Source: Reclinomonas americana ATCC 50394
Taxonomy: Eukaryota
Assembly (NCBI GenBank): GCA_048213135.1
Contig: PS015104.1
Span: 12,855-53,057, forward strand
Reading direction: 5' to 3'
Length of the DNA: 40,203 bases
Part shown: positions 1 to 39,200 of the stretch, piece by piece
How positions within the stretch are numbered: position 1 is the stretch's first letter
How the letters are laid out: each line of letters begins with the position of its first letter
Made by a program: the position numbers and the translations under genes
Notes under the pieces: model-generated
Database searches by the model: none
What the model saw: only the letters and a program-made list of their open reading frames with translations
What the model was told of the DNA's origin: nothing

Positions 1-3000
1 GCAGCCGACGAGCAGCGTGACATTCTCACCATTGAGTTCCTCGTGTTGGACCCGGTGAAGATTGTGGTCACCAAGGAGTTGCTGCAACACATTCGCGAGT
101 TCATGGTCATGGTCGAGGGTGTCGAGCAGCGTGCCAAATTGCGCGCCGCGGCCGTTGGCTCCGGCGCTGCTACCGAGGCGGGAGCGGCTGGCGACGAAAC
201 CTCGCTGGCCAAGGTTCTGCGCTCCGAGACTCGCTACGCATCGAGTCCACCACCGGCCGGCTCCGCCGCCGCCGCCGCCGCCGCCTCACTGTCGCCGGCG
301 TCGAGTCTGTCATCGCCTGGCTCTCCCAGCATGCCGGCAGTCACGGCCAATGCGACGGCGGCGACGACGATGGTGCCGCTGCGCACGGTCAACGTGACGG
401 GAACCACCACTTCGGCGGCCGCTGTGGCAGCGGCNNNNNNNNNNNNNNNNNNNNNNNNNNNNNNNNNNNNNNNNNNNNNNNNNNNNNNNNNNNNNNNNNN
501 GGTGGGCTCTGGAAGTGGACCAGCGACCGACAGCCCGAGTCGGTTGCAGATTGTTGGTGAGTTCGTTTGTGTGTTTGTCTCTCGGTAGCCTCATGCGCTC
601 CATCTCACCTTCTTTTTCGTCATTGTTGCAGTGCCGGAGAACGACGCTCGCGCGCTCTCTCAACGCGCTGAAAATCAGCGCAAGCGCATTTTGCATTCTC
701 GTGTGCTCTCCTCCAATTCGCCGACCATGTCGCCGGCCTCCATGGCGACACCATCGGCGGCGGCCGGCATGGCCATGCAGCAGCTGTCGCCGGATACTCC
801 CGTGCAGTACACCCACTTCCGATTCCTGTTCAAGAACAGCACCGAAGAGGACATGTTGTTCAGCCAGACCGACTCGCAGAATCAATTCCGACTCAACTCG
901 GGGTGCCAGTCGCCATTCACGTTCCCGAATCCGTTCCTGCCAAAGCTTGTTGTTGCGTTTTGCAGCAGCACCTGCTCGTGACCTCTCACGCGACGTGATG
1001 CCGACCCTCATTTTGCAGGATTTCTGTATGAACGGCTGGTCACAAGTTTCACAACTCGAGGTGGAATATCCGGGCGTGGAGGAGCTCGTCGTATCCAGCT
1101 CGCCGTTCACCGCCATGTTCTTCTCGACAACGGCCGCCGTGTCGACGGCCTCGGTTCCAACGACTCCCGCTGGTATGTGCCCTTGTATTATAGATGGTGC
1201 CTCTCTTGCTCATGTTTGACGCTCTCTCTCTCTTTCTCGCCCTCTTTCCAGCATCGTCGGTGGTCGCGTCCAACCGTCGCGTGTCACTGCACGCGGCTGG
1301 CAAGCGCGTGCAGCGTGGACACCACTCACGCGGCAATAGCGGCGGTGACGGCTCTGCCTCGCGCTCCATTATCGTGAATGTGGAGGTCAAAGGCATGCAG
1401 CGCTTTGTGGAGGTACGTCGGTTGTTGCTGCCATGCTTGCCTGTTGTGCTGATGTCGCCCTTGTTGTTTACCCTCGCCTCGCCACGCAGTTCATGTCGTC
1501 GTTCGCGGCGGTGAACAAGACCGATGTGGAGATGCAGTTGCGCACGTACCGCCCAACTGGCGTGCCGCAAACCAACACCATTGTCCACGTGCCGCCTCTC
1601 GGTCACGCACCGTTCTGCTACAACGAGAAGTGGCCGAATGTGCAGTACCAGCTCAAGCCCGCCGGCGAGTGGGAGTGGAGTCTGCCATTTTCGGTGGGCT
1701 CGAAAAAGTCCGACGTGCAGCTGCTGGTTGTGCGAAGCTCCGATCAGCTGCTGTGTCGCGAGTTTGCCGTCACCTGCCATCAGGACAAGCGCACCGGGCA
1801 GACGCGCGTGATAGTGGTACCGCCGTTCACTATTTCCAACCGCGCCCCGTTCCCCGTGCATTTTTCGTTCCCCAACCGCGCCGAGTCCGAGTACCGTTTG
1901 TGCGAGTTGCCGCCGCTCTCTGTGAAGACTCTCTTTTTCACACCCGACGAGGAGCCATTCCGCCTGCGCATGGAGCAGTACGATACGTGGTCGCGTCCGA
2001 TTTCGCTCAAGAAGCCAGGCACCTTTAACGTCCGCGTCTCGCGCAAGGTCTGGTCGTGGTTGTGCACTTGTGTCGCGCAAAACCCATATAATAATGTCTC
2101 ACTTGTTGATTCCAGACACCTACTGGCCAGTGGTTCAAGCAGCGACGACGCAGCGGCAGCATCACTGCCGCCTCGCTGTTATCGCCACAGGATGACCCCG
2201 AAGCGCACGGCAGCGAACTCCTGTCGCCGTTCACGACCCCACTGGCGAGCAGTAGCAGCGCTGCTGCTGCTGGTGGTTCGACTCCGTCGGCGGGTGTGGT
2301 GATTGGCAGCGACGGCTCCGTGCTCACGTGCAAGCGCGAGGGTCAGATTCTCGACGTTACGGTCGACCGGCCATCCGAAGAAGGCGGTCGCACCGTGATT
2401 GTGGAAGTGCCGATTGTGCTCATCAACCACACCAACATTGATGTGATGATTGAGCAGCGTGGGTACGATGCCGAGGCGCAGGTGGTCGCCAGTTACTCCG
2501 AGGCGCCGTTCTCGTCGGTGGTGCCGGGATACATTCTGCGAGTTGCGCAAAGGGGAAGGAACAGTGAGAGAGATGCGTGCAGTTCCTGGAGTTTACTTAC
2601 TTGCCGCGATTGATGTAGGCACGGGCTGTCCACGGTGGTTGGCAAACCAGTGCTCACGGATGGGGCGAGCCGTTCTCCATCGAGCTGCCCACAATGACAC
2701 CGGTGCGCATTCCGCTCTCTGCCAGCTCCGACACCGAGTACGAGATTCTCGTGCACGTGGTGTCGCGTGGCACGCGCGGTCGTACGGTGACGCTGACGCC
2801 CCGCTTCATGCTCTACAATCGCACGAGCATCAACCTGTTGGTCATTTTCGGTGAGCACATTCTGCCCTGGTCTCGTTTTTTTCGTCTTTTTGCTCACTCT
2901 GGCATATGCCCTTCTGCGTGCGCAGGCACCTTCCACACGCTGCTTCCGGCGCAAAGCAACGAGGTTTGCTGTGTGGCCACCGACAACGCGTTCGTCACGG

Positions 3001-36200: not shown

Positions 36201-39200
36201 GCGCGCGGCTACCACCGCCTGGTGCGGTTGTCCAAGGCTGCCGACTGTGACCGGCTTTTGCAAATGGACGGAAATGGTGGTCGTCGCCGGCAGCGGTGTC
36301 ACCGTCGTGGCAGAGGGGCGCATCGGCGGATACGTGACGGTGCGTGAGCCGACAGGCGGACTCACGACAGCGGCAGCCGTCGTCGACGTGGTTGTGGTTC
36401 CGCTTGCGCCGGCCGACAGCGAGGCATTCAGTCGCGGACTCGCCGCCGGACTGGAGCCGCTCTTGTTGGGCGACACCTTGGCCGCCGCCTTGCCGCCCTT
36501 GACCACAGACACACGCGCCGCCACGGATTCGTCGACGTGTGTCGGCGACAGTGTCGACGCGCTGAATGGTGAGTGCACGAGCGCCCGGCCAATGAGCTCA
36601 TCCAGCGCTGCTGCGCCTCCACTACCACCGTCTCCTCCGCCATGAGCTGGCTCCGTTGTCATGCGTCGATTGACACGCGGACTGTTGCCGCCACCCGTGG
36701 TCGCCCCCGCACTGATTCGTCGCCGATGATTGCTGCGAGTCTGCGACGCCAAAATAATGCACCATGTCAGCAAATGAGCAGACCGGGCGATGAGAGAGGG
36801 GAAAATGCGCACCACATCGAGGTCTGTCGCGCTGGGTTTCGGTGGAGACACGGGAGGCGATGCAGATGCAGCAAAAACAGCAGCAGCAGCAGTTGGTGCT
36901 AGTACAGGTGGAGGGGAGGCCAGTGGAGAATCCGCAGAGGTGACAATCGGCGAACTGCCGCGACCCGTGGTCTTCAGGAACGAGGGTGCGGGGACGGGAG
37001 AACCGCGCGACGCGGGAGCAGCAACGGCGGCCGCTGGTCCTCTGGCGCTCCGATGAGCACCCACGGGACGGCCACCGTCCTCCAACACAGAGTCCACCGG
37101 CGACTTCCACTCCAGCGCCTCGGCCGCCGGCGACATGCCCATTCGACTCCCAAACATGGCCTCGTCGGGCGACAGCGGCAGCTCCACAGGTGGTGCGGCA
37201 GCCGCCGGCTCGAACAGTCGATTGAACTTGACTCGATCGTGCGGATCCGGCGGCACGAGTGGACCAGTGCCGGAGCGTGGCGGTGGTGGTTGCAGGAAGC
37301 GGCGTGCACTGCTCGGGGCCGCGATGGGGGACAGCTGGGGGGACGGGCAACGGGTGAGTCAATGTGACGCGAAAGGGGGAAAGGGGTGAAGTATGTTCCT
37401 CTCTCTCTCCAATTCTGCTGCTGGGCGTGTGCGCGTGCGTGAAGTCCCTCTTTTCGCACGTGTGTACATGTGTGTGTGTGCACGAAACGACGTTTTGTGA
37501 TGGTGGCGACTGCACACCACTGCCGCCATCAGCGGGTGGAGGTGAGCCCATGCTCTCGGGTGAGGTGAGAATGGAGCGCTCCGACTTGAAAATGCTCTCG
37601 ACACGCATCACTGCAGAGGCAGAGATGAGTCAGGACACAGAAGACAGAAAACAAAGCGAAACACAGCATACCTTGCTCGAGCACACTGCTCCGCCACTCG
37701 CTGTTGCGCTTGATGACATCCATGTACGTGGAAGAGGTCCGCGAGGTCAGCTGGAGCGGTGTCTCCTGATTGACGCCCCACCAGAACACAGTGCCGCGGT
37801 CTGCACGCATGTTCCATGTGAGTGAGCAAGCCACAGGAATCAAAACACACAGTCTCACATCAAGGGCGATCTCTCTTCGAGCCAAGATGGATCTCACATG
37901 TGCACCTGAGCCTGGCACAAGGAACTGACCTTCGCCCACCAACTCCCTTGTATCTCACTCTGTCGCCTGACACTCCTCTCTCTCTCTCTCTCTCTCTCAT
38001 ACGCCCAAACATAAACATCGCCCATTTGCTTTCGATGGTCCTTCTAATCTGTTGCTTAGGCAACCCCACTTGCTAGATCGCATGCCGCGCAGATCTATTT
38101 CATCCATTTCTCCCAGTCTCTTTTTTCACTCTTGGTGCATGTGTTCTTCCTCCTCTGTCTTCTTCTTCCTCCTCCTCCTTTTCTTGTTCTTCTTCTTCTC
38201 GTTTTTCTCCTTCCTTCTCTTTCCTCTTCTTCTCCTCCTCCTTCTTCCTTTCTCTGTATTCTCTCTTCCTTCCATCGTACTCGCTCCTTCCCCTTCTGCT
38301 TCCTCGCCTCAACAACCCTCACCTGTCACCGCCACACAATGCGAAGGCGAGCAGACCAGATCGCGCACATTGTGACCCGTGAGAGCCTCCACCACGGTCG
38401 GCTGCGACGACGACTCGGACGACCCGCGTGCCAACAGCCCGTCCGCCCGATTGCCCCACGAATAGAGAGCGCCGGTCTCTGTCACCGCAAAACTCGACTC
38501 CTTTTCCGCAAACACTCGCAGCACTCGTAATCTCTCGAGTCCCGACACTGGCAGCAGCGAATCTGCGCGTCGCCGCCGAAGCACAATCAGCAAACAATCA
38601 CACCACGAATCCGACTCTTTTCTTGAGCGCACCATGTGACGATGTTCCGGGACCGAGTTGACCCTGCTTGTTGACACCGCAGCCGACCACGTGCCCATCC
38701 ACGGTCAAAAACAGCACGTGCCGTGAGCCAGTGGCACAATCCACAAAATTGCCCTGCACCGAGTGCGAGTGCGTCACCCGCTTGCCGTCCTGCACCCACC
38801 AGAATGCCCGTGACTCTGCGCGCCACGAGTATTAGCAAGCGGTTACAAATAGAGAGGCGACATTTCCCGCAAAAGACGAGTCACCAGTGCAGGCACAAAA
38901 CCGCGCCACCAACGACGCCGCCGACATGCCAATGACAGGCTCACGGCCAATCGGTTCTCGGTCATCCACCACCGCCGCCTCGTTCCACGTGTTGAGCAAG
39001 GCGGCTTCTAATGGTGGTGGTTCACCTGCGCAATGAATGAAAAGAGTGAGACAGAGAGAGAAAAGCGACAATGCGAAGCCACAAAACACTACTCACCAAC
39101 TGCGCCCACTGGCCGCTCCGCCACCATCTCCAGCGCCTCCGACACACTCCTCGCAGTAATGCTGCTCTTGGTCGACGCTAATTGTGTGGGAGACCAGACC

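Follow-up and report, generated by a model that had tools for sequence, protein, structure and literature searches.

Introns that open with GTTGCGT recur in a 40,203-nucleotide (nt) stretch of Reclinomonas americana ATCC 50394 DNA (assembly GCA_048213135.1, contig PS015104.1, positions 12,855 to 53,057 of the forward strand; hereafter the window, in whose own numbering all coordinates are given). Protein homology indicates that they are true GT-AG introns of the U2 type and that (A/T)/GTTGCGT, where the slash marks the exon-intron boundary, is a second, discrete consensus at their 5' ends. We estimate at roughly 55% the probability that this second donor code is read one nucleotide out of register by the small nuclear RNAs (snRNAs) that pair with the 5' splice site, the U1 among them probably being non-standard. 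A sequence-only reading of the window had listed 18 such donors, 15 of them exact GTTGCG hexamers, and had taken them for a distinct, recurrent class cleaved at the GU. All 15 hexamers were found at their coordinates and on their strands, as were the variants GTTCCGT at 15615 (+), GTTGAGT at 31803 (+) and GTTTCGT at 37488 (-); for the intron starting at 952 the start stood and the end moved from 1017 to 1018. Homology supports both the class and cleavage at the GU at ten junctions. Judged in this way, the donor class appears real at 10 of the 18 listed sites and plausible at six more, with one site ambiguous (22275) and one doubtful (13554). Coordinates are collected in Table 1.

Nine of the ten homology-placed junctions lie in gene E, which encodes an FtsX-domain protein. 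One 101-residue exon of this gene (19901-20203, minus strand) was used as a HMMER query against 1.84 billion representative proteins, which gave 394 relatives at E values up to 0.001; the best 150 of the 394 were used onward. The best relatives are 32-63% identical to the exon, and those named among the matches listed are FtsX-domain proteins of Naegleria, Thecamonas, Andalucia and Rigifila. Several relatives come from transcriptome assemblies, so their sequences are independent of intron calls. The family is eukaryote-wide, with proteins of about 1100-1400 residues carrying two FtsX permease domains. A family profile of 1172 positions was built from the 58 full-length sequences (950-1550 residues) among these best 150, and the spliced gene E protein of 1063 amino acids aligns to it end to end (profile positions 65-1160, 1161.4 bits). 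The alignment is gapless across the junctions GELDI/VLTP, LFLDQ/LLLG, GLRPWQ/TILAL, AIAFI/VFAG and LRAVGLS/RAQV. For the N-terminal ~64 profile positions of gene E and for the exons of the 25959 intron, a family-profile search found nothing; the missing N-terminus probably lies within the assembly gap at 23254-23700. A word-indexed protein search returned no relatives for the gene E exon or for a VPS26 exon, a search of metagenome loci with the gene E exon confirmed none, and Pfam gave no useful matches on ten short gene E exons.

Every frame-preserving, stop-free GT/GC-AG option within 60 nt of either intron end was then compared for the 22 introns of gene E, a set of 357 alternative proteins, and the donor boundary was additionally moved in steps of 3 nt, to a maximum of 15 nt, with no requirement on the dinucleotide. 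At nine of the ten gene E GTTGCG junctions none of the 2-34 alternatives scores higher, the best alternative losing 4.0-10.1 bits, and each 3-15 nt boundary shift at these same nine sites costs 4.0-24.8 bits. The twelve other gene E introns include nine without a better alternative; better ones were found at 22112 (+9.0 bits), 18144 (+4.6 bits) and 17586 (+0.3 bits). At 17067, the upstream exon ends at position 39 of the Pfam FtsX domain, and the paralogous domain is contiguous over positions 39-50. The tenth homology-placed junction, at 31803 in the VPS26 gene, is exact: residues 1-25 of the 26-residue upstream exon correspond to Vps26 positions 177-201 and the downstream exon continues from position 203, with neither gap nor overlap.

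As a motif-blind control we used a coding-only dynamic-programming model whose knowledge of donors was limited to GT or GC. It placed the boundary directly before GTTGCG at 2542, 3726, 21070, 19900 and 19720 in a first run, and at 21070, 19900, 19720 and 17067 in a second. Other sites it passed over for in-frame GTs close by, which means that coding bias and frame are not enough to settle every site. The motif-free models missed 5-7 of the 11 listed sites of the gene E region in the two runs; gene prediction trained on GTRAGT-type donors will get the splicing of such genes wrong.

The hexamer shows no overall enrichment in the window (30 copies versus 27.66 +/- 4.87 expected, with 37 of 100 shuffles reaching 30). 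Within genes, 23 of 29 copies are in the sense and 6 in the antisense orientation (binomial p = 0.0023), and in the gene E span 10 of the 11 sense copies are exactly intron starts. GTTGCG makes up 30 of the 4494 GTNNNN words; at this background rate, finding it in at least 9 of 22 donors has a probability of 1.2e-14. That G occupies +6, as the sequence-only reading had it, holds for all 18 listed sites, and T occupies +7 in 15 of them. Of the 15 listed GTTGCG sites, 12 have T and 3 have C at base +7, compared with 7 C, 4 G, 3 T and 1 A at the 15 other copies. Unused sense copies lie within exons at 20906 (-), inside the conserved motif GMLRALG, and at 1537, 3977 and 13036 (+). Since these exonic copies are evidently not used as donors, the hexamer alone is insufficient for splicing.

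Support at the remaining listed sites is of other kinds. Splicing restores a long open frame at 952, 2542, 3726, 25959 and 37488, and a CTNAY motif lies 16-22 nt before the 3' AG at each of these except 952, where the nearest CTNAY is about 8 nt before the AG. The sole other in-frame GT donor for the 952 intron is GTTGTTG at 949, which likewise has T at +3 (a +3T donor). Pfam finds VAB repeats in the VPS13 exons, with profile coordinates too loose for placing 952, 2542 or 3726, and the 37488 intron sits in a low-complexity part of the protein where there is no Pfam match. For 15615, solved relatives span the junction with 3-5 extra residues, which is compatible with the proposed intron and imprecise. 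The least favourable case is 13554 in gene C, a gene with no Pfam match and only two relatives, at 29-30% identity, in a word-indexed search of proteins of 500-2000 residues. With only these two homologues, an alternative intron at 13599-13671 with a GTGCGC donor scores 138.7 versus 137.2 and 73.2 versus 71.7 bits, and it yields an SYF.LEL match inside the stretch that the 13554 intron would remove. In favour of the 13554 version, it alone, and not the one at 13599-13671, has a CTAAC spaced as usual from the 3' AG. On balance the GTTGCG copy at 13554 is probably exonic.

Two further candidates lie beyond the earlier list. A sixteenth sense GTTGCGT opens a candidate 59-nt intron at 25739-25797 (-), with CTGAC 12 nt before its CAG; it adjoins the intron starting at 25959 and extends into an assembly gap. 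At 16118 (+) in gene D, a probable GTTTGTT donor was seen by eye (cag/GTTTGTTCA) between two very short exons.

Both donor classes share the features of one intron type. All 25 homology-placed introns, 13 with +3T donors and 12 with ordinary ones, start with GT and end with AG, in every case (C/T)AG. CTNAY, a candidate branch site at the level of the motif, stands within 45 nt of the 3' end in 12 of 13 +3T introns and in 11 of 12 ordinary ones, usually at a distance of 12-22 nt from the AG. The modal length is 58-67 nt in both classes, and 11 of the 13 +3T introns measure 58-81 nt. As branch motif, acceptor and length are common to the two, both are best regarded as ordinary U2-type introns that differ in their 5' splice sites.

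The composition of the donors bears on how they are read. G at -1 is found at 1 of 15 listed sites versus 14 of 18 modelled ordinary donors (p = 6e-5) and, in the homology-tested set, at 3 of 13 +3T versus 9 of 12 ordinary donors (p = 0.017); A is the commonest base at -1 in the listed sites (7 of 15). Pairing in a +1 register predicts this depletion and pairing with a bulged U does not, so a shift is favoured over a bulge. The base before the conserved G is A in 8 and C in 3 ordinary donors, compared with A in 1 and C in 9 of the +3T class (p = 0.0075), and GTGCGT makes up 3 of the 12 homology-tested ordinary donors. The sequence-only description of the class as an ordinary donor plus one T was thus correct for the G and T of +5 and +6, which have moved to +6 and +7, and missed the base before the G, where C is preferred and not A.

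Pairing energies were predicted for the same donors. With the standard U1 5' end, the GUUGCGU consensus gives +0.4 kcal/mol in the shifted register, +2.5 in the bulged and +0.9 to +2.6 in the canonical one, versus -11.1 for GUGAGU and -5.3 kcal/mol for GUGCGU among ordinary donors. With standard U1, the form GUUGAGU reaches -4.0 kcal/mol in a fixed register and -7.1 at site 31803. A hypothetical U1 with an ACGUAC core gives -5.5 kcal/mol for GUUGCGU in the shifted register, the best duplex overall. When the duplex with standard U1 was predicted freely, 7 of the 18 sites had all their pairs in the +1 register and an eighth had some of them there, with mostly weak energies. Between the two options left by the sequence-only reading, a shift on standard U1 or an altered snRNA or factor, these energies favour the latter; we consider an altered snRNA at least as likely as shifted pairing to standard U1.

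We therefore propose the following scheme, in which the register displacement, the identity of the U1 and every role of U6 are our inference. Cleavage would take place at the GU, with the elements ordinarily at +5 and +6 (G, T) standing at +6 and +7 instead. The first to act would be U1, its pairing shifted by +1 so that U+3 faces A7 and G+1 faces C9. The reader is probably not standard U1, because C at +5 mismatches standard U1 in every register. Our most likely guess is that U1, or a second U1 variant, carries G at position 5 (an ACGUAC core, compare the Mastigamoeba candidate below) and pairs with UGCGU. Pairing with an ACGUAC core would explain why C far exceeds A in the GTTGCG class and A exceeds C in ordinary donors. 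More tentatively, two 5' codes could operate in one spliceosome: an altered U1, or an extra one, whose ACGUAC-like or ACGCAAC-like core pairs with UGCGU, would read GUUGCGU constitutively shifted by one base, and G+6 would replace G+5 for both U1 and U6. G at +5 is among the most conserved features of spliceosomal introns and is contacted in turn by U1 and U6. If the two-code scheme is true, a pairing mode known only from rare human exceptions would be the norm throughout the genome for at least a quarter of introns; the share of about a quarter comes from one 40 kb window. A free-living genome with a large share of its introns at G+6 would constitute a natural experiment on the extent of register slippage that the helices of U1 and U6 and the catalytic core can bear, and on the co-evolution of snRNAs and splice sites.

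Several observations count against the shifted, non-standard-U1 reading. First, 13554 is probably no donor and 22275 is ambiguous. Second, the +3T donors GTTTTTG (22635) and GTTTGTG (17240) do not fit a simple one-base shift. Third, the statistics for -1 and for A versus C come from 10-18 sites, 10 of them in one gene. Fourth, the energies are those of naked 11-nt duplexes lacking pseudouridine and U1C. Fifth, an ACGUAC U1 would weaken pairing with the majority donor GUGAGU (-7.9 versus -11.1 kcal/mol), so a single U1 species may be unable to serve the two classes. Sixth, Thecamonas and Mamiellales are described in a preprint (Roy & Bowser, bioRxiv 10.1101/2022.06.08.495308) as having C at +4 together with standard U1, which means that C opposite U1 position 5 does not by itself need a changed U1. 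Lastly, the U1 with an ACGUAC core was taken over from a different organism and is a hypothesis for this one.

A serious rival, to which we give a clearly smaller though substantial probability, is that the donors are real and the snRNAs standard, the mechanism being protein-assisted or driven by U6. The choice of donor would then be made by intron definition, given how short the introns are, by proteins of the U1C/LUC7 type or by contacts with U6 or U5; a bulged or shifted U would be tolerated, and GCG would reflect a protein or structural preference. The GYGCGY-type donors that Thecamonas and Mamiellales reportedly use with standard U1 (bioRxiv 10.1101/2022.06.08.495308) are consistent with this, as are the shifted and bulge +2/+3 registers in which human 5' splice sites pair with normal U1 (Tan et al. 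2016, PMC4856993) and the capacity of U6 for non-canonical registers (PMC11162779). The 11 short +3T introns with strong branch-like motifs also fit this account. Such an account has to accommodate a standard-U1 duplex that is predicted to be unstable in every register (+0.4 to +2.6 kcal/mol) and the rarity of the better-pairing GUUGAGU, with 1 site versus 15.

It is improbable that the junctions are simply misplaced, with GC-AG introns starting 3 nt further in (GTT/GCGT) or at a neighbouring GT, and with GTTGCG as an exon-end bias. In favour of this reading, a GC donor 3 nt in preserves the frame at all sites and ranks second, or lies within 0.2 bits of the second-ranked alternative, and a neighbouring GTG donor scores slightly higher at 22275 and 13554. 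However, the GC reading costs 4.0-10.1 bits at each of nine junctions, about 56 bits summed, on which ground we rejected it, and all other boundary shifts cost more. To our knowledge, GCGTNN is far from any known GC-donor consensus. The nearby GT alternatives would create introns of 43-49 nt, below the 58-nt minimum of the homology-placed introns.

Still less probable is an origin of the GTTGCG introns as copies of a mobile intron (introner) that spread recently and brought its own donor along. Ten in one gene with uniform lengths of 58-81 nt would suit such a burst, but 9-mers past +8 are common to 10 of 78 pairs compared with 13 of 66 for ordinary introns, by which the introner family was rejected; no terminal repeats were seen by eye, and the length mode and 3' signals are those of ordinary introns. 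We give hardly any weight to a minor-spliceosome (U12-type) or third type of spliceosome, since a discrete second donor consensus is a U12-type hallmark but the donors read GTTGCGT and not the U12-type RTATCCTT, the branch region carries CTNAY as in ordinary introns and not the U12-type TCCTTAAC, and the 40% share seen in one gene is far higher than any known for U12-type introns.

The window is part of a draft eukaryotic scaffold with ten assembly gaps, a GC content of 37-63% that falls to 37-45% at about 22-34 kb, and a dense population of short introns. The long introns at 18690-19412, 20204-20851, 21686-22112 and 31803-32921 consist of CT-rich or GA-rich low-complexity and microsatellite sequence and hold most of the assembly gaps. 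The galactosyltransferase-like reading frame is intronless and lies antisense between very intron-rich genes. Rfam found no snRNA in the window, with 0 matches at the gathering threshold; at E values up to 1 there were two sub-threshold matches only, one MIR6426-like and one snoZ178-like.

Table 1. Introns with T at +3 of the donor, and genes of the window (window coordinates; alternatives and shifts are scored in bits against the gene E family profile).
Feature	Positions	Strand	Evidence
Candidate GTTGCGT intron, 67 nt, VPS13-family gene	952-1018	+	Read-through stop 27 nt in; VPS13_VAB matches on flanking exons
Candidate GTTGCGC intron, 77 nt, VPS13-family gene	2542-2618	+	Read-through stop 69 nt in; CTTAC 19 nt before AG; 300 open codons after splicing
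Candidate GTTGCGT intron, 76 nt, VPS13-family gene	3726-3801	+	CTGAC 22 nt before AG; 163 open codons after splicing
Proposed GTTGCGT intron, gene C, doubtful	13554-13629	+	CTAAC 22 nt before AG
Candidate GTTCCGT intron, 49 nt, TauD-like gene	15615-15663	+	Frame-forced given acceptor 15663
GTTGCGT intron, 58 nt, gene E (LRAVGLS/RAQV)	17010-17067	-	0/27 alternatives better, best costs 6.1
GTTTGTG intron, 63 nt, gene E; +3T donor with G at +5, beyond the earlier list	17178-17240	-	0/8 alternatives better, best costs 9.2
GTTGCGT intron, 81 nt, gene E	17315-17395	-	0/24 alternatives better, best costs 5.1
GTTGCGC intron, 67 nt, gene E	18302-18368	-	0/33 alternatives better, best costs 4.0
GTTGCGT intron, 723 nt including two assembly gaps, gene E (AIAFI/VFAG)	18690-19412	-	0/34 alternatives better, best costs 10.1
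GTTGCGT intron, 62 nt, gene E	19659-19720	-	0/13 alternatives better, best costs 6.4; coding-only model agrees
GTTGCGT intron, 62 nt, gene E (GLRPWQ/TILAL)	19839-19900	-	0/2 alternatives better, best costs 7.2; coding-only model agrees
GTTGCGT intron, 63 nt, gene E (LFLDQ/LLLG)	21008-21070	-	0/15 alternatives better, best costs 5.2; coding-only model agrees
GTTGCGC intron, 64 nt, gene E, ambiguous placement	22212-22275	-	Donor 22260 (GTGTCGCG, 49-nt intron) scores +3.4; gapped, variable profile region
GTTTTTG intron, 71 nt, gene E; +3T donor beyond the earlier list	22565-22635	-	0/13 alternatives better; GTGGGCTG donor 6 nt downstream costs 8.2
GTTGCGT intron, 66 nt, gene E	22768-22833	-	0/7 alternatives better, best costs 5.6; shifts 5.8-15.4
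GTTGCGT intron, 64 nt, gene E (GELDI/VLTP)	22903-22966	-	0/19 alternatives better, best costs 5.7; shifts 5.7-21.9; CTCAC 12 nt before AG
Candidate GTTGCGT intron, 69 nt, small gene upstream of gene E	25891-25959	-	CTAAC 16 nt before AG; 38 open codons upstream, 37 after splicing
GTTGAGT intron, 1119 nt with assembly gap, VPS26 gene	31803-32921	+	Pfam Vps26 continuity
Candidate GTTTCGT intron, 154 nt, RCC1-repeat gene	37335-37488	-	CTCAC 20 nt before AG
VPS13-family gene	1 to about 6216	+	VPS13_VAB Pfam matches on exons
Galactosyltransferase-like gene, single exon, 344 codons	6303-7334	-	Pfam Galactosyl_T, E 8e-11
Gene C, uncharacterised	12357-14069	+	GTPGISKS P-loop-like motif
Gene D, TauD/gamma-butyrobetaine-hydroxylase-like	to 16585	+	TauD Pfam match on exon downstream of 15615 intron; solved relatives
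Gene E, FtsX-domain protein, two FtsX domains	coding span 16659-23044	-	22 introns modelled; Pfam FtsX matches on exons
Small gene upstream of gene E	around 25750-26050	-	Holds 25959 intron
VPS26 gene	30789-33194	+	Pfam Vps26
RCC1-repeat gene	33312-39911	-	RCC1 repeats

A full-text search of articles found GTTGCG or GUUGCG only in primers and unrelated sequences and nowhere as a class of splice site. Among the nearest known systems are atypical human 5' splice sites, which Roca and Krainer reportedly showed in 2009 to be read by U1 in a +1 shifted register, and the bulge registers of human 5' splice sites, said to have been described by Roca et al. in 2012. Human bulge sites number in the tens among a very large total and form no major class. 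Human precedents cover the +1 shifted, bulge +2/+3 and bulge +3 registers (Tan et al. 2016, PMC4856993; review PMC9311317), with 68 predicted human sites for bulge +2/+3 and 51 for bulge +3 (Tan et al. 2016, PMC4856993, Table 3). The present donors resemble the shifted sites in several respects: cleavage falls at the GU, the pairing block is displaced by one base, and U stands at +3 and G at +6; a test oligonucleotide, ACA/GUCAAGUAU, given in PMC4856993, has the same layout as the GTTGCG donors. However, the human shifted sites are a rare oddity, whereas here the class makes up 10 of the 22 introns of gene E, and they pair well with standard U1, unlike GUUGCGU, whose shifted pairing is poor (+0.4 kcal/mol) because of the C at +5. 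The bulge registers resemble these donors in having one extra U after the GU and downstream pairs moved by one, and degeneracy between U+2 and U+3 would account for the extra base being T. A bulge register keeps the G-1:C9 pair and should favour G at -1, in contrast to the single G among the 15 sites here.

Other eukaryotes offer partial parallels in their donor sequences. Thecamonas trahens, with its C at +4, and Mamiellales, with GYGCGY donors, are both assigned standard U1 in the preprint (bioRxiv 10.1101/2022.06.08.495308); the likeness here is that GTGCGT is among the ordinary donors and that the block TGCGT lies within the second class. The terms 'GUUG', 'shifted' and 'bulge' are absent from that text, whose sections on these donors report neither an extra T nor a shift of G+5 for Mamiellales or Thecamonas. 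According to the same preprint (Roy & Bowser, bioRxiv 10.1101/2022.06.08.495308), Entamoeba combines a GUUUGU donor with a co-evolved U1 ACAAAC, and Mastigamoeba prefers GUGCGC and has an ACGUAC U1 candidate. The GTTTGTG donor at 17240 in gene E keeps G at +5, as the Entamoeba consensus does. Like the donors described here, those of the Archamoebae are lineage-specific, with U at +3 or C at +4, and are explained there by a changed U1 5' end. They nevertheless form one consensus in the canonical register with G kept at +5, whereas the R. americana window holds two classes, one of them without G at +5.

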